9,381 nt of DNA, taken from the IMG/VR virus record IMGVR_UViG_2534682159_000017; one strand, written 5' to 3'. The DNA comes from a virus. Taxonomy: Duplodnaviria; Heunggongvirae; Uroviricota; Caudoviricetes. Positions 2,328 to 9,099 of the stretch are shown piece by piece; position 1 is the first letter of the stretch; every line of letters starts with the position of its first letter. The position numbers and the translations under genes are program-made. Below the pieces are notes generated by a model, which was given only the letters and a program-made list of their open reading frames with translations, did no database searches and was not told the origin of the DNA.

Positions 2328-2504
2328 TTATTCTTTTGATTCTATGCCGCGTTTATCCAACTCACGGCGCAAAAGCCTTTTTATCCATCCTGAGCGGTTA
2401 TCATCGCCATCTTCTTTCATGGCGATGCTTAAGCGTTCGAATAAGTCAGCATCAAGACGAAGCTGTACGGAAAACCTTTCCTTTTTGTTGTCATTGGTTG
2501 ACAT
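2328..2504 (-). CDS. Arc/MetJ-type ribbon-helix-helix DNA-binding protein (58 aa), candidate repressor
   Basis: Reverse-complement translation MSTNDNKKERFSVQLRLDADLFERLSIAMKEDGDDNRSGWIKRLLRRELDKRGIESKE. Beta-strand (RFSVQLRL), helix A, and helix B beginning with the RS/G motif follow the Arc/Mnt/CopG layout. SD GAGG lies 7 nt upstream of the ATG on the - strand. The 174-aa ORF in the track (2328-2852) is an upstream extension through promoter sequence and is not supported. Confidence 0.6.
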   Translation of the reverse strand: MSTNDNKKERFSVQLRLDADLFERLSIAMKEDGDDNRSGWIKRLLRRELDKRGIESKE

Positions 2505-2556
2505 TGTATACCTCGAGTATAATAATGGCCTTACGGTGACAATGTATACCAATGAC
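2490..2556. promoter_or_regulatory. Divergent promoter/operator region between the RHH gene (leftward) and the rep operon (rightward)
   Basis: + strand: -35 TTGACA (2498-2503), 17-bp spacer, -10 AATAAT (2521-2526); TATAAT also present at 2518-2523. Direct repeats TGACATTGTATACC (2499-2512) and TGACAATGTATACC (2537-2550) sit over the -35 and around the predicted +1. Inverted flanks GTCATTGG (2490-2497) and CCAATGAC (2549-2556). The RHH start codon is the complement of 2502-2504, inside the -35. Confidence 0.5.
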
Positions 2557-2630
2557 ACCACAAAAGCAAAGCCCGCTGGCGCTATGAACACCAACGGGCT
2601 TCTAACCAACAACGTAAACGAGGAGCCGTT

Positions 2631-3191
2631 ATGGTTGCCGTAAATCATATACCACACCTTGTACACACACAAACGGCCTTTGTGTGGCGTTTTCTGGCCC
2701 TGAATATCGGAGAAAAAAACCAGTTGATCGCCAGTGTCGAAAATAGCTATGATTCCCGCGCACCTCATAAAACGGGTGCCGGGATTGGCGTCCTGGGCAA
2801 AACTGAAGCGCATAACACGCGCCCCGCGTGTTTTTTTGTGCCGCATAGTCACACCTTATCAATGGTGGGCTGTACGGGGGCGGAGCAATCCGCGCCGGTT
2901 TCTTCAGTGTCCGGTTACGCCAACCCTGTACAGTCCGCCACCAGCGAAATTGGCGTTTCCGGTGGCGGTTATCTTAACCACACTGAGGAGGCTGCCAACA
3001 TGGCTACTATCCCTACCCTTGTACATTCTCAAACCGCCTTTCTCTGGCGCTTTATCATCTTTGGCGCGTCAGAACATCAAATCATCCACGTAACCGCCTG
3101 GACGGAACGCGAAGCGCGTAACCGTTGCCCGTCCGGTTGTGTCGCTGTATTCGCCGCCCGTATTCGCCAGGGGGAAACCTATGCACAATAA
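2631..3191 (+). CDS. Hypothetical protein with internal tandem duplication (186 aa); first gene of the rightward operon
   Basis: Strong SD GAGGAG (2620-2625) 5 nt before the ATG; stop overlaps the next gene start (ATGCACAATAA). Two homologous segments (IPHLVHTQTAFVWRFLAL... and IPTLVHSQTAFLWRFIIF...) differ partly by synonymous third-position changes, which argues for coding. No family recognised. Confidence 0.5.
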   Translation: MVAVNHIPHLVHTQTAFVWRFLALNIGEKNQLIASVENSYDSRAPHKTGAGIGVLGKTEAHNTRPACFFVPHSHTLSMVGCTGAEQSAPVSSVSGYANPVQSATSEIGVSGGGYLNHTEEAANMATIPTLVHSQTAFLWRFIIFGASEHQIIHVTAWTEREARNRCPSGCVAVFAARIRQGETYAQ

Positions 3192-4176: not shown

Positions 4177-5582
4177 AACTGGCACCGAACGTAAAACGAT
4201 TACCGAAAGATAAATACACCGATGCGATTATTTTTGCGGGTATTGATGCTCATTCATTCGCAGAGCATTACATCATTGCACAGGCCAAAAAAGCAGGCGA
4301 TCCAGTCCCTCCCGTTTATCTGGGGCGTTATCAGTTAAGCGAACTGGATAACCTCCAGATTGTTGATGATGGGCGATACAGGGCGACGGTGATACGCGCC
4401 GGAAATATTGAAGAGCCGCAGCTGTTAACCATCGCCACGAAACTGGCGATCGCCGGAGTCCAGGAGGCGCGGCTACTTTCTGAAAATTTCGAATTGCTGG
4501 AGGAATGGAGCGACCAGCTTCCACGGCTTAGGGAGGCATGGGAACGCGGGGAAAGCCTGGTCATGAAAAAAATCCCCCAGCGAAAAACCACGCTACCGAT
4601 GAGCGTTGGATCTACCGGATACGACACACAGCTTGATTACGTGGTAAAGGGGATTATTCCGGCATCGTCGCTATGCAGCATATACGGGGCGAGCGGTTCC
4701 TATAAATCATTCCTTGCCGGATCGTGGGCGTGTCACGTTTCCACGGGCCGCCAGTGGGGAGGCCGCAGGGTGGCGCATGGTGCGGTTCTCTATGTGGTTG
4801 GTGAAGGCGGTATCGGCGTTCCGCGTCGTGTAAAAGCCTGGGAGGTTGTGCACGGTGAGCAGGTGAAAAATCTGTATCTGGTAAACCGTCCCATCTTTCC
4901 GGCGGTCCCGCTTGATGTTGATGAAATGGTTATCGCTGCCCGTCAGGTGGAGCGGGAAACGGGTAAACCTGTACGCATGATTATTCTGGATACGCTGGCG
5001 CGTTGCTTTGGTGGGAATGATGAAAATGATTCCCGTGATATGGGGGCGTTTATCCGTGGTTGTGACGAACTGAAACGGCGCACAGGGGCCACGGTGCTGG
5101 TGGTTCACCATTCCGGCAAGGATGAGACGAAAGGCGCGCGCGGTTCCAGTGCATTTCGTGCTTCGCTGGATGCTGAATACCGGATACGCAGAGAGGACGC
5201 AGGCAGCGAAGCGCTGGTTATCTCATGCACCAAAATGAAGGACGCGGAGGAACTCAAAGAAGCCGCATATGACTTACGCGTGGTGGAGCTTTTTACCGAC
5301 GCTGACGGGGAGTTAATCACGTCGCTGGTGGTGGTGGATAAGCCGCGCCCTCCCGTTGAACTGGAGCGCATCGAGGAGGCAGGGAACAAGACGGAGAATC
5401 ACGCCGCGCTATGGCAGTGCATCAGAACACGAACAGCACACGGGGAGGCGTGCACTATCGCCCTTCTCCGCGACGATATGAAAAAGCTGGGGTATGAGAT
5501 GAAGCACTTCCGGCGCTGGCTGTACAAGCTGGAAAATGATGGCGTAATCGTTATTGATGGTGATGACGTGCGCCCGCTGTAA
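4173..5582 (+). CDS. Replication initiator/helicase-like ATPase, RepA-like AAA_25 / RecA-fold family
   Basis: 469-aa ORF. P-loop region IYGASGSYKSFLAG, Walker-B-like MIILDTLARCFGG, and the family-typical LVVHHSGKD motif. Iteron array begins 4 bp after the stop. SD AGGGG 6 nt before the ATG. No primase domain recognised in the N-terminal 150 aa. Confidence 0.88.
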   Translation: MKLAPNVKRLPKDKYTDAIIFAGIDAHSFAEHYIIAQAKKAGDPVPPVYLGRYQLSELDNLQIVDDGRYRATVIRAGNIEEPQLLTIATKLAIAGVQEARLLSENFELLEEWSDQLPRLREAWERGESLVMKKIPQRKTTLPMSVGSTGYDTQLDYVVKGIIPASSLCSIYGASGSYKSFLAGSWACHVSTGRQWGGRRVAHGAVLYVVGEGGIGVPRRVKAWEVVHGEQVKNLYLVNRPIFPAVPLDVDEMVIAARQVERETGKPVRMIILDTLARCFGGNDENDSRDMGAFIRGCDELKRRTGATVLVVHHSGKDETKGARGSSAFRASLDAEYRIRREDAGSEALVISCTKMKDAEELKEAAYDLRVVELFTDADGELITSLVVVDKPRPPVELERIEEAGNKTENHAALWQCIRTRTAHGEACTIALLRDDMKKLGYEMKHFRRWLYKLENDGVIVIDGDDVRPL

Positions 5583-5585
5583 AAA

Positions 5586-5784
5586 GTGGGGAGTAAAAGT
5601 GGGGAGAGTGGGGAATTTAACAAAATTGAAACATAATTACCCACTTTCCCACCTGTATACACCCAAAAAAGTGGGGAGTAAAAAACATATTGAAAAACAT
5701 AACGTTAGAATCACAAAAAAAAGAGGTGGGGAGACGGTGGGTAATTTCAAAAAGTGGGGAGCAAAAGTGGGGAGTAGTGGGGAA
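5586..5784. repeat. Iteron array / replication origin
   Basis: GTGGGGA(G/A) direct repeats start at 5586, 5599, 5609, 5671, 5726, 5754, 5767 and 5777, with a degenerate GGTGGGTA at 5737. They form two clusters flanking an AT-rich segment (about 5615-5725) that holds inverted partial copies (CCCACTT 5640-5646, CCCACC 5648-5653). Confidence 0.85.
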
Positions 5785-6041
5785 TGAACAGAAAAACCAG
5801 AGATAAGACAGCGCCAAAATATAAAGCGTTAGACATGACAGAGCACGCCTTAAAGGTGGCAATCAGAACGATAGACCGCCACGCGGGGGAAGGATACGCG
5901 AAGGAACATCCCGACCTGATAAGCGCATTCATGACCACAGCAGCGGCAAACTTTGCCACGCTGACAGAACGGGAGATTGCCGAAGCGGAACAGGTAACAA
6001 CCATCAACGTAAAAACCGGAGAGTCAGGCGATGATACATGA
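5784..6041 (+). CDS. Hypothetical protein (85 aa)
   Basis: ORF begins inside the last iteron and overlaps the following gene by 11 nt. No good SD spacing; plausible globular composition; no recognisable family. Confidence 0.35.
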   Translation: MNRKTRDKTAPKYKALDMTEHALKVAIRTIDRHAGEGYAKEHPDLISAFMTTAAANFATLTEREIAEAEQVTTINVKTGESGDDT

Positions 6042-6303
6042 CCGCATAGCGGAGGAACTCGAGGCGAAAGGATTTTACCGGAGGGCGGCGGCGCGATGGG
6101 GTGAAGTCATGCAGCTGGTGGAGACAGACAAGGAACGGCATCAGGTTACGATGCGACGGCTGGAATGTTCCAGGAAAGCACAGAGGCAACCGGAGCCGCC
6201 GGATAACTTCGGAGACCTGAGAAAGGCAGTAGATCGCACTTATGCTGAAATGGGTATAGATGGTGTAAGCGATGAAATATGGTGTAATTACCAGGACAGC
6301 TAA
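6031..6303 (+). CDS. PerC-family transcriptional regulator-like protein (90 aa)
   Basis: SD GGAG (6018-6021) 9 nt before the ATG. N-terminal IAEELEAKGFYRRAAARWGEVM matches the conserved LE-x-KG-x-RRAA-x-W signature I associate with PerC/Pch proteins. Followed by a terminator. Confidence 0.7.
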   Translation: MIHDRIAEELEAKGFYRRAAARWGEVMQLVETDKERHQVTMRRLECSRKAQRQPEPPDNFGDLRKAVDRTYAEMGIDGVSDEIWCNYQDS

Positions 6304-6309
6304 TCACAC

Positions 6310-6332
6310 AGCCGGAGCAATCCGGCTTTTTT
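6310..6332 (+). terminator. Rho-independent terminator
   Basis: Stem AGCCGGA (6310-6316), loop GCAA, stem TCCGGCT (6321-6327), then TTTTTT. Confidence 0.8.
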
Positions 6333-6406
6333 GCGGGTCCTCCTGGTGGGGTGGGCCTGAACACGGGGCGGGCGGGCGCGGAAAAAGGCGCATTTTTTGA
6401 TTTTTA
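6327..6406 (+). repeat. Conserved ~80-bp GC-rich box, copy A (TTTTTTGCGGGTCCTCCTGGTGGGGTGGGCCTGAACACGGGGCGGGCGG...GCATTTTTTGATTTT)
   Basis: Near-identical to 8865-8943 apart from 2-3 small indels or substitutions. Begins in the T-tract of the terminator. Ends in a second short GC hairpin (GCGC-loop-GCGC) plus a T-run. Confidence 0.9.
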
Positions 6407-6761
6407 TGGCACCATCACCACCACTATAAGTTATTGATATATTGAAGAATAAAAATTTTTAGTGTCGAATCAGGTTGTTTTTTGTTCATCACTGGATCGT
6501 TCCCGAAAGCATTTACAAAAAAACAGGCGCAAAAAAAGCGCCCCCGATTGCTGTTACCGGAGGCGCTTTTACACGACAAAGGAGTTTTTATCGCCAGGAT
6601 GACGAGTCTTAATATTGCTTCAATAGCAAAAATGCGTCAATGGCTTTGCCTCTCTGAGAATAATCAGAAAAATCATAATCTGATTTTATGGTAGAAAATG
6701 ATTTATCTATTACTTTTATCGATCAATAATGATGCCCGTTAATCAAAACGGAGGCGGATTT

Positions 6762-6956
6762 ATGCCAGAGAACAACACCAGAAAGCCGGATAAAAGTGCC
6801 ACGGTACACATAGACGCCGGAACTATGGAGAAGATCGAACGCTATCAGCAGTTCATCAAAGATAATCACCCGGGTATGCCAGTGCCCACGAAAGGACAAA
6901 TCACACGCAGCGCGGTTGAATACTGGTACAGGGCAACGTTAGGAGCCTGGCTATGA
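6762..6956 (+). CDS. Small protein with a possible ribbon-helix-helix-like fold, translationally coupled to the protease-capsid gene (64 aa from the ATG at 6762; the track ORF begins at 6729)
   Basis: SD GGAGG (6750-6754) 7 nt before the ATG at 6762. Stop overlaps the capsid-gene start (ATGA at 6953-6956). Fold call rests only on the pattern SATVHIDAGTMEKIERY...GQITRSAVEYWY and is weak. Confidence 0.5.
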   Translation: MPENNTRKPDKSATVHIDAGTMEKIERYQQFIKDNHPGMPVPTKGQITRSAVEYWYRATLGAWL

Positions 6957-8842
6957 AAACATGGTTTTCCATTAAGGCTATGGCAGATGTTGTACATGTG
7001 CGCATTTATGACGAGATCGGCGGGTACGGTGTAAAAGCATCGGCACTTACTGACGAGATCAACGCGTGTGGTAATGCGTCTGAAATCCATCTTCGCATCC
7101 ATTCACCTGGTGGCGACATCTTTGAAGGGCTGGCTATCTATAACGCTCTGAAAAATCATCCGGCAAAAAAAATCGTACACATTGAAGGCATGGCGGCTTC
7201 TATGGCGTCGTTTATTGCCATGTGTGGAGATCACATCGTTATGCCTGAAAACGCGATGATGATGATACATGCCCCCCGTGGTGTTACTGCCGGAGTGTCG
7301 GGCGACGTTCGCCGCTTTGCTGATCTGATGGACAAGCTGGGCGACACGATGGCAGAAACCTATGCCGGAAGAACGGGCAGGAGCAAACAGGAGATCACCT
7401 CAATGATGGAGGCGGAAACCTGGATGGATGGCAATGAGTGTAAGGCTAACGGCTTCGCAGATGAGGTTATACCCGCGATTACAGCAATGGCCCGAATTGA
7501 ATCAAAACGAATCGGAGATTTTTCAAATATGCCGGAAAAAATTAAAAGCATGATCAGCCAGAAAACTGGCAGTGGCGAACAGGAACGACTTAACGGAATC
7601 CGTGAATTGTTTGGCACCTTCAACGGAAGATATAACGACCTGGCTATAAGTTGTCTTGCGGATTCAGAATGTAGCGTTGAGAATGCACGCGAACGCCTTT
7701 TACTCGCTATGGGTAAAGAATCAACGCCAACAAACAAAACCACCCCCGCAAATCTTTACTACGCGTACACGGATAACGGCAATATAACTGGCGATGCCAT
7801 GCGTCAGGGGCTTAATGCGCGTCTTGGTCACGAACGGGCCGAACGCGGTAATCCTTACGCCATGATGAGTCTTTTCGATATGGCACAGGCATCATTAACC
7901 CATCGTGGTATAAGCACGGGCAGCTACAGCACACGCTCGCAGATAGTAAACGCGGCATTCACCCACAGCAGCAGCGATTTTACCGATATCCTTGCTGGTG
8001 GCGCTGAAAAATCAGTGCTTGCAGGCTGGGAGCACAGCGGCGAAACATTCCGCCAGTGGACGAAAAAAGGTTCCCTTTCAAACTTCCGGGAAGCCCGCCG
8101 CGTTGGTATGAATGGCTTCTCAACGTTAAACAAAGTGCCGGAAGGGGCAGAATATAAATACATCACCACCAGCGATCGCGGTGAACCCATCGCGCTGGCT
8201 ACTTACGGGAATATTTTCAGCATTACCCGCCAGGCGATAATCAATGATGACCTTGATCAGTTATCAACGGTGCCAATGGCTATGGGCCGTGCAGCATCAA
8301 GAACGGTGGGAAATCTGGTTAATCTGGTGCTTACAGGCAACGTAAAACTTTCTGACGGAATAACGCTGTTTGACAAAAAACACAGCAACCTGATTGAAGC
8401 AGGACTGACAACACCGGGACTTAGTGCAGCACGTCACCTGATGCGCACACAGAAGGACAAAAATGGCGAAGTGCTGAATATTGCGCCTAAATTCCTTTTA
8501 GTTCCGGCAGCACTGGAAGATCGCGCGTTGCAGATGATTAACTCAACCGCACCTTTCGGGGCTGATAAAAACAGCGGGATCTTTAACCCGTACCACAAGC
8601 TACTTGATATCATCGTCGATCCCCGCCTTGATGATATCAGCGAAAAACAATGGTACATGCTTTCCGCACAGGGAACGGACACAATCGAGGTGGCTTATCT
8701 TGATGGCAATGACGAGCCTTACCTTGAACAGCAGGAAGGTTTTATCGTTGACGGCGTGGCCTGGAAAGTCCGTATTGATGCAGGTGTGGCAGCTCTGGAT
8801 TATCGCGGTATGGTCAAATCAGGCGGTACCGATTCACTATGA
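6953..8842 (+). CDS. Fusion protein: ClpP-like (S14) prohead serine protease, N-terminal, joined to an HK97-fold phage major capsid protein, C-terminal
   Basis: 629-aa ORF; SD AGGAG (6941-6945) 7 nt before the ATG. ClpP active-site signatures GMAASMAS (Ser83, codon 7199-7201) and MMMIHAPRG (His106) match ClpP GQAASMG and MIHQP. The C-terminal ~350 aa have capsid-like composition and length. Terminator immediately downstream. Confidence 0.88.
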   Translation: MKTWFSIKAMADVVHVRIYDEIGGYGVKASALTDEINACGNASEIHLRIHSPGGDIFEGLAIYNALKNHPAKKIVHIEGMAASMASFIAMCGDHIVMPENAMMMIHAPRGVTAGVSGDVRRFADLMDKLGDTMAETYAGRTGRSKQEITSMMEAETWMDGNECKANGFADEVIPAITAMARIESKRIGDFSNMPEKIKSMISQKTGSGEQERLNGIRELFGTFNGRYNDLAISCLADSECSVENARERLLLAMGKESTPTNKTTPANLYYAYTDNGNITGDAMRQGLNARLGHERAERGNPYAMMSLFDMAQASLTHRGISTGSYSTRSQIVNAAFTHSSSDFTDILAGGAEKSVLAGWEHSGETFRQWTKKGSLSNFREARRVGMNGFSTLNKVPEGAEYKYITTSDRGEPIALATYGNIFSITRQAIINDDLDQLSTVPMAMGRAASRTVGNLVNLVLTGNVKLSDGITLFDKKHSNLIEAGLTTPGLSAARHLMRTQKDKNGEVLNIAPKFLLVPAALEDRALQMINSTAPFGADKNSGIFNPYHKLLDIIVDPRLDDISEKQWYMLSAQGTDTIEVAYLDGNDEPYLEQQEGFIVDGVAWKVRIDAGVAALDYRGMVKSGGTDSL

Positions 8843-8846
8843 CAAC

Positions 8847-8870
8847 AAGGCGGCACCAGCCGCCTTTTTT
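8847..8870 (+). terminator. Rho-independent terminator
   Basis: Stem AAGGCGGC (8847-8854), loop ACCA, stem GCCGCCTT (8859-8866), T-run 8865-8870; 5 bp after the capsid stop. Confidence 0.8.
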
Positions 8871-8943
8871 GCGGGTCCTCCTGGTGGGGTGGGCCTGAAC
8901 ACGGGGCGGGCGGCGCGGAAAAAAACGCATTTTTTTGATTTTA
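8865..8943 (+). repeat. Conserved ~80-bp GC-rich box, copy B
   Basis: Direct repeat of 6327-6406, in the same position relative to a terminator. Confidence 0.9.
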
Positions 8944-9099
8944 TCGTCATCATCATCATGTTCGTAAGTGATTGTTTTTAATTGCTTTGATGTAAAAAAG
9001 ATGATGAAGAAGGTTGTTTTTTGTTCGACATCTTTTAGCGTGACAGATTCTTTACAAAAAATCTGAGCTTGTTTTCTTCACCAGCGCGATGGGGGCACA

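Follow-up and report, generated by a model that had tools for sequence, protein, structure and literature searches.

The 9,381-nt stretch of viral DNA analysed in this study (the window) encodes a tyrosine integrase, an AlpA-like protein, a small divergent repressor-like protein, a DUF4222 protein, an AAA_25/RepA-type helicase, PerC and a ClpP-capsid fusion, a gene set that by its predicted content is that of a Gram-negative PICI. The locus of interest is a long in-frame ORF of 186 aa at 2631..3191 (+ strand, as are all features below unless stated otherwise), which was taken from the ORF list and identified by comparison with P4 as the positional counterpart of eta. Two starts, each with its own Shine-Dalgarno (SD) sequence, serve this frame: GAGGAG at 2620-2625 precedes the ATG at 2631 with a spacing of GAGGAG-N5-ATG (2620..2633), and GAGGAGG at 2985-2991 precedes a second, in-frame ATG at 3000 with a spacing of GAGGAGG-N8-ATG (2985-3002). 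An earlier, sequence-only reading of this DNA had correctly placed both GAGGAG and ATG pairs, the open 186-aa frame and the second start with its own SD. That reading also described residues 5-60 and 124-186 as paralogous, with a DNA repeat that extends upstream through the ribosome-binding site. The paralogy is real, with an alignment score of 77 between the first 123 residues and the last 63 (500 shuffles gave 23 ± 4), but only residues ~7-29 against ~127-149 are convincingly alike (IPxLVHxQTAFxWRF plus a few residues); similarly, both copies have an SD and an ATG, but the parts from SD to ATG otherwise share little. The longest direct repeat in the region (2648-2693 against 3008-3053, 46 nt, 76% identity) has its two members 360 nt apart and therefore in frame.

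Upstream of the long ORF, the alpA-like gene ends at 1945, and the ~685 nt between it and the ATG at 2631 hold the divergent repressor-like gene, a promoter-like site and a leader. The repressor-like gene (2328..2504, − strand, from the ORF list) encodes a 58-aa protein that looks ribbon-helix-helix-like by eye and had no Pfam or PHROG match; an annotated CDS occupies the equivalent place in one sister locus (L002). Its position, together with adjacent operator-like repeats (TGACAnTGTATACC, 2499-2512 and 2537-2550), suggests that it may act as a repressor. The repeats overlap a putative upstream promoter at 2498..2526 (TTGACA-17-AATAAT), a site recognised only by pattern matching to the consensus (11/12). 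In the leader that precedes the long ORF, an inverted-repeat search placed a stem-loop at 2568..2602, and this hairpin is kept, with differing sequences, in both of the classes of sister loci (A and B) described below.

The second start opens a complete Icd-like gene of 63 aa (copy 2, 3000..3191); a further gene starts at 3181. The sequence-only reading had not recognised the family, yet the 63-aa ORF matches the NCBIfam model NF033153 (host cell division inhibitor Icd-like) with 57.3 bits against a cutoff of 25, and the same model scores 76 bits with P4 Kil, 49.8 bits with the Icd of a P1-like phage and 64.8 bits with single-copy Icd from class B; Pfam Phage_ASH and PHROG 29966 also match the locus. 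BLASTP aligned the 63-aa ORF to the P1-like phage Icd with 40% identity (E 3e-9) and found no match when it was compared with P4 Kil alone, a kinship visible only through the family HMM and a longer alignment. On these homology scores we place the 63-aa ORF in the family of P1 Icd and P4 Kil. It evolves as a protein, with variable sites distributed 8/7/21 over the three codon positions (p = 0.006), and AlphaFold2 predicted a beta-beta-alpha-beta fold for it alone (pLDDT 73.5); fold searches with this model were uninformative. The translation-initiation region of copy 2, AGGAGGCTGCCAnCATGGCTAC, hardly varies among relatives, and P4 shares it. No other stretch of the region is as rich in C and poor in G as the first ~90 nt of icd (C/G ratio 2.1-2.3), a composition that would be expected of a Rho loading site.

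An Rfam scan revealed that the 260 nt between the two copies hold two RNA genes. The first is an isrK/P4 seqA-like leader RNA at 2760..2836 (RF01394, 66 bits against a gathering score of 50), in which a scan for terminator-like hairpins located an intrinsic terminator at 2814-2832 plus a T-run. The second is a C4/P4 CI-type antisense RNA at 2858..2945 (RF01695, 77.6 bits against a gathering score of 45) that matches the model over its full length, 1-87, and whose minimum free energy fold gives the expected long stem and two hairpins. Immediately before the leader RNA lies a promoter-like site at 2724..2753 (TTGATC-18-TATGAT, 9/12 by consensus match only), which would be the counterpart of P4 PLE; it ends 6 nt before 2760, which fits a transcription start at ~2760. 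This putative internal promoter is conserved in all class-A loci at a P4-like position, and is encoded by conserved 'NQLIA...YDS' codons. The sequence-only reading had passed over the fact that residues ~40-123 of the long frame lie over two RNA genes.

C4 exposes two segments, b′ in the loop of hairpin 2 (2902-2908) and a′ in the adjacent unpaired stretch (2917-2923). A duplex scan and a search for inverted repeats identified two sets of targets for them, one upstream within isrK (a1 2785-2791, b1 2802-2808; −32 kcal/mol) and one downstream at 2950..2991 (a2 2950-2956, b2 2982-2988; −36 kcal/mol), where b2 overlaps the SD GAGGAGG at 2985-2991, 8 nt before the ATG at 3000. We considered whether the direct repeat could represent the canonical a1b1/a2b2 (seqA/seqC) sites, but those lie at 2785-2808 and 2950-2988 and the repeat lies inside the ORF starts. 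The top targets of the C4 duplex scan did not include the SD/ATG site at 2620-2633, and by hand count only 6 bp form between the SD at 2620 and the b′ loop. Eighty loci were collected from IMG/VR using the Icd protein alone; a scan of genome contigs with the single protein had returned only two loci, and the scan of viral contigs with an alignment was the productive one. Covariation was measured in an alignment of 15 sequences (13 distinct RNA-bearing types, the window and P4). Both sets of pairs, a1:a′ with b1:b′ and a′:a2 with b′:b2, were paired in 100% of 210 cells each, with compensatory changes in 12 of 14 pairs per set and covariation scores of 0.87 and 0.85, compared with ~0.25 for shuffles; slid controls were only 23-53% paired. 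Selection acts on the RNA switch. Its a-types number at least six and its b-types at least eight, found in various combinations, as in the heteroimmunity of P1/P7 and P4.

Two classes of sister loci can be told apart: class A has isrK and C4, and class B lacks both (checked in L004) and has a single icd gene (MVAVNHIPHLVHTQTAFVWRFLALSAGESQIIHVTAW...). Among E. coli genomes, 2,056 have a match. Single-copy versions of the gene thus exist in homologous islands, a comparison that the sequence-only reading had proposed. From the leader hairpin through the SD and ATG to the end of the first 29 codons (...CGGAGAA, ~2717), the window hardly differs from class B; past this point class B continues as icd and the window continues with AAAAACCAGTTGATC, that is, the A-tract and −35 element of the putative internal promoter. 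Copy 1 (2631..2717) comprises the 5′-most 29 codons of a second icd allele; its in-frame junction with the RNA module lies at the A-tract that immediately precedes the internal −35. Copy 1 and its leader match class-B icd at 94-96% identity and copy 2 at just 76-81%, which makes the locus a mosaic of two icd alleles. Both classes share the same leader variants (the leader of the window is found in L048), and the 360-nt block is therefore a presence/absence polymorphism. We also weighed an in-situ tandem duplication and discarded it, copy 1 being much nearer to the class-B alleles than to copy 2, and the same percentages set aside the earlier suggestion of a tandem duplication fused by loss of a stop codon. 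Synonymous differences between the copies had been read as evidence that the repeat is coding; it is indeed of protein-coding origin, but the differences arose while both were full genes, and reflect the divergence of two once-complete icd alleles and not selection on the present fusion.

The immunity region of satellite phage P4 consists of a PLE leader with seqA, the CI RNA (seqB), seqC and the nested genes kil and eta, and the immI operon of P1 and P7 reportedly holds the c4 antisense RNA, icd and ant with the targets a1 b1 and a2 b2. In its layout the locus resembles both. On the minus strand of P4 (X51522) we found an isrK-like leader at 8692-8615 (60.8 bits) and C4 (CI RNA) at 8507-8420 (74.9 bits); CACAGGAGGCTGCCATCATGG leads into the 65-aa kil ORF, and the long in-frame ORF (eta, 8812-8168) has three adjacent ATG codons (MMM), giving 199, 198 or 197 aa. 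In both P4 and the window, an internal promoter or promoter-like site, an isrK/seqA-like leader with a terminator, C4/CI and a target over the SD follow one another in that order, an Icd-family ORF of ~65 aa forms the 3′ end of a long frame that starts upstream of the internal promoter, the C4-to-ATG distance is 142 nt and the frame through C4 is the same. The long ORF of the window opens with a 29-codon icd fragment, and the N-terminus of P4 eta has no similarity to kil; P4 also has ~87 extra nt between leader and CI that are absent here, and the a/b specificities differ. In P4 (summarised in PMC10111431), eta follows and is coupled to an alpA homologue and uses the late promoter PLL, whereas in the window this place is taken by a putative divergent promoter with a leader, operator-like repeats and the small repressor-like gene. 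The same source summarises the P4 model of nested eta and kil genes, in which genetics showed that expression through translation of the long frame, unlike initiation at kil, is insensitive to RNA immunity. With two starts that each have an SD, and with this precedent, the earlier proposal that the locus yields both a long and a short product is plausible.

The likeness to P1/P7 immI lies in a C4 RNA with a target pair on either side, b2 covering the ribosome-binding site of icd, and in a homologous Icd. RNAs of the C4 family are characteristically cut from a longer transcript by RNase P and act as repressors in trans. In the P1-like phage that we examined, however, the icd frame is closed by a stop just upstream of C4, and no isrK match reached the gathering score; downstream lies an antirepressor-type gene where the window has satellite replication genes. 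The isrK-orf45-anrP region of Gifsy-1 of Salmonella (Hershko-Shalev et al. 2016; PMC4825925) similarly has an isrK RNA with its own promoter and leaky terminator, and its orf45 lies over a processed RNA of ~80 nt, STnc1160, placed where C4 sits in the window. The nucleotides of orf45 are conserved and its amino acids are not, and translation through this homologous region is required for expression of the downstream gene (PMC4825925). Unlike the frame described here, orf45 is short and starts downstream of isrK, the gene downstream is an antirepressor, and there is neither an icd nor an upstream in-frame start. Among satellites, Mageeney et al. (2023; PMC10111431) reported Rfam matches to C4 and isrK in several Gram-negative PICIs and the P4 CI RNA within eta. 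The window is like such PICIs, and like helper-embedded PICIs with 'Bro zone' immunity RNAs, in having an integrase, AlpA, a Phage_ASH gene, replication genes and ClpP-capsid late genes (PMC10111431). We found no description of an icd-fragment N-terminus, of presence/absence of the RNA block or of covarying a/b types for these PICIs in PMC10111431, nor in the literature on these islands any account of a start formed by an icd fragment, of the polymorphism between classes A and B or of the catalogue of a/b types. All three are variations within the known mechanism.

We conclude that the locus is probably an RNA immunity switch of the P4 type with a long, eta-like read-through frame, carried by a phage satellite (PICI). 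In the model that we propose, transcription from the internal promoter (~2724-2753) would yield the short isrK/seqA-type leader RNA (2760-2836), and read-through with processing of the same transcript would yield the C4/CI antisense RNA (2858-2945). C4 would then pair through b′ and a′ with a2/b2 over the icd SD for the start at 3000, and also with a1/b1 in the leader, thereby blocking translation of icd; the untranslated, C-rich start of icd would invite Rho-dependent termination and leave the downstream replication genes silent. The upstream promoter (2498-2526) would be controlled through the operator-like repeats, next to the divergent small repressor gene, and its transcripts would bring their own SD and ATG (2620-2633), a poor match to C4. 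Ribosomes starting at the ATG at 2631 could run in frame through the terminator, C4 and the blocked start as far as the icd stop. By analogy with P4 eta/kil and Gifsy-1 isrK-orf45-anrP, translation of the long frame may thus suppress termination and override the RNA immunity, making expression insensitive to it once the protein repressor is lifted.

Such a role for the long frame is consistent with its conservation. In 26 distinct class-A regions, found with the Icd protein alone and thus by a selection blind to the long frame, the icd frame is free of stops from isrK to the icd ATG in 25, and it is also open in P4; these relatives are not independent samples. Dinucleotide shuffles left the frame open in only 2-10% of trials per sequence. 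Across the RNA stretch of the same 26 regions, frame +1 is always closed, by 2-9 stops, and frame +2 is mostly closed. Since frame +2 too lacks stops over the RNA stretch in roughly one third of the relatives, GC-rich structured RNA is by nature poor in stops. Length changes preserve the frame: the isrK match and C4 are 101 nt apart in some types and 98 nt in others, a difference of 3 nt, and the net insertion of 87 nt in P4 is likewise frame-preserving. Homologues had been expected to keep the frame intact, which holds for the 25 regions but not for L006, which has 1 nt less before the ATG, nor for L034. Taken with the stop in the P1-like phage, the loss of the frame in these two loci means that the long ORF is not indispensable. 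At their upstream ends, the loci found independently of the frame show three N-terminal architectures, each of them in frame, its SD and ATG lying ahead of the internal promoter-like site. A protein search with the long ORF, which could detect in-frame versions only, returned 775 relatives named 'ash family', 'Icd-like' or 'Ash-like/Icd-like', in five N-terminal architectures, all in frame: that of the window, a longer icd fragment (42 of 63 residues), MRNHTTHPQGRDSHNLNK with the fragment, MRNHTTHPQGRDSHNLNK without the fragment, and three icd-like segments.

The chief alternative is that the RNA module and the 63-aa icd work without functional translation of the 186-aa frame; copy 1 would be a dead remnant of recombination, and the frame would be open by chance or through recency. 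Copy 1 is almost invariant among loci and near-identical to live class-B alleles, which points to a fusion that is recent or homogenised and leaves no variation on which selection on copy 1 could be measured. Chance is not negligible either, at 3-10% per sequence, and frame +2 is open as well in about 8 of the 26 relatives. The two loci without the long frame fit the same explanation, as does the NCBI pipeline (PGAP), which annotates the first part of the ORF as an 'ash family' pseudogene. What makes a mere remnant rather unlikely in our view is that the frame stays open across at least eight RNA specificity types that differ by 25-30%, and in P4 despite its extra 87 nt, and that the three architectures recovered with Icd alone are each in frame behind an SD and ATG, to which the protein search adds two with the restriction noted above. 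Copy 1 moreover retains the full leader, SD and ATG of a functional gene, and the equivalent ORF of P4 matters genetically (PMC10111431).

A further reading would make the in-frame icd fragment itself a selected device, in which a second, C4-blind icd translation-initiation region sets the protein repressor at the upstream promoter and the antisense RNA at the internal promoter as two independent locks on one operon; we regard this as improbable. If it were true, the long product could also differ in behaviour from free Icd, for instance as a non-toxic or dominant-negative form, because it carries a duplicated first beta-strand, and the polymorphism of the 360-nt block would amount to modular gain and loss of RNA immunity.

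The sequence-only reading had favoured a protein of two paralogous domains, or long and short isoforms with distinct protein functions, as a helper-interaction or anti-phage factor. The self-similarity is indeed significant at the protein level, both copies are of coding origin, and the long product would hold a complete Icd domain at its C-terminus. Against two domains, copy 1 amounts to 29 of ~63 codons and corresponds only to the first predicted beta-strand of the beta-beta-alpha-beta unit; when the 186-aa ORF was modelled with AlphaFold2 from a 76-sequence alignment, only residues 133-181 folded, as beta-beta-alpha-beta, and residues 1-132 had pLDDT <50 and no secondary structure. The supposed linker consists of the two RNA genes and evolves as RNA: variable sites are distributed 27/22/27 over codon positions between C4 and the ATG and 12/12/11 in the 5′ part of isrK, with no third-position excess, and the constraint on it acts at the level of RNA and not of protein. 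Pfam Phage_ASH (PF10554) matches residues 40-133 with 63.2 bits against a cutoff of 26, but these residues correspond to nt 2748-3029, that is, to isrK, C4 and the targets, and the amino acids of the Ash stretch change along with the compensatory RNA changes. The Phage_ASH match is not conserved here as a protein domain, with no coding signature and no predicted fold. PHROG 29966, whose listed function is unknown, spans the whole two-copy ORF. Many relatives have N-termini without any icd fragment, the family searches made here gave no evidence for a defence family, and nothing in these results points to helper interaction or anti-phage activity; of the named relatives, P1 Icd inhibits cell division and P4 Kil is a peptide that kills the cell. 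A two-domain protein at this locus is therefore very improbable.

We rejected as scarcely credible a role of copy 1 as a further target or decoy RNA to which C4 (or isrK) would bind, a role suggested by the resemblance of TGGCGT and CTGAA in copy 1 to a and b sites, by a duplex of −26 kcal/mol at 2672-2711 and by an inverted repeat that pairs 2685-2704 with 2903-2922 at 70%, since the pairing shows no covariation (loci with a C4 a′ of GGCTAA, the L003 type, keep the same copy-1 sequence) and is weaker than at a1/b1 and a2/b2, and TGGCGT encodes the Trp-Arg of the conserved WRF motif.

With the P4-type RNA immunity switch as the preferred reading, the locus is a recognisable known system rather than a new two-domain protein, and the supposed new protein family gives way to a known regulatory system. 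Caution is warranted in annotation, as the Pfam "Ash" family and PHROG 29966 mostly represent the translation of two RNA genes and pipelines split or pseudogenise the locus. None of these results overturns current understanding. The sister islands, with their combinatorial, covarying a/b types and the presence or absence of the RNA block, offer a natural system in which to study how satellites combine protein and RNA immunity.

A comparison of related loci carrying the RNA genes isrK and C4 (L002, L003 and L007-L041) with those lacking them (L004, L005 and L042-L086) showed that a 360-nt block, comprising the internal promoter, isrK, C4 and the second icd start, is present or absent between islands that are near-identical elsewhere. 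The single-copy form without RNA immunity was found in E. coli O157:H7 islands. A further related locus, L088, contains a 257-aa ORF with three icd-like segments (2501-3274 in L088 coordinates), in which a full P4-Kil-like copy is followed by a 29-residue fragment and then by isrK, C4 and a complete icd. L088 also carries a further covarying b type of C4 loop and target specificity (CACTAGAG / CTCTAGTG).

Several hairpins were noted in the window. The 5′ leader contains a GC-rich hairpin (2568-2602) ahead of the Shine-Dalgarno sequence of the long ORF, with equivalents in L002-L086; its stem is conserved and its inner sequence varies by locus, in islands with and without the RNA genes alike. 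Read on the minus strand, this element has the hairpin and T-run of an intrinsic terminator and faces the repressor promoter. Within copy 1, the first 29 codons of an icd allele, a perfect 8-bp hairpin (CACACAAA/TTTGTGTG) at 2666-2686 is followed by GCGTTTTCTG and is terminator-like. Because the same sequence is also found in intact icd genes of the islands that lack the RNA genes, it probably does not terminate transcription efficiently while being translated. A third element, a GC-rich palindrome with A- and T-runs on its flanks (6529-6578), gave weak, below-threshold Rfam matches (STnc130 and ctRNA_p42d); the simplest reading of it is an intrinsic terminator that works in both directions.

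Directly 3′ of the AAA_25 helicase gene, an iteron-like array rich in GTGGGGAG occurs in two 45-nt copies (80% identity; 5581-5625 and 5749-5793), and this is probably the replication origin of the satellite. A homologue of the PerC family of transcriptional activators (6031-6303; 146 bits) is flanked by replication genes and the capsid gene. A ClpP-type prohead protease and an HK97-like major capsid domain are fused in one ORF of 629 aa (6953-8842), on either side of which is a 127-nt direct repeat with 76% identity (6310-6436 and 8848-8974). This repeat may have been left by recombination when late genes were captured, or it may serve in regulation or packaging.

The match to the Ash protein family (Pfam PF10554; PHROG 29966) at 2748-3029 covers the same stretch as isrK, C4 and their targets. 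No coding signature was present across 2748-3029, and in close relatives this stretch is called an 'ash family' pseudogene by NCBI's pipeline. The Ash protein-family models at this position largely represent RNA genes in translation.
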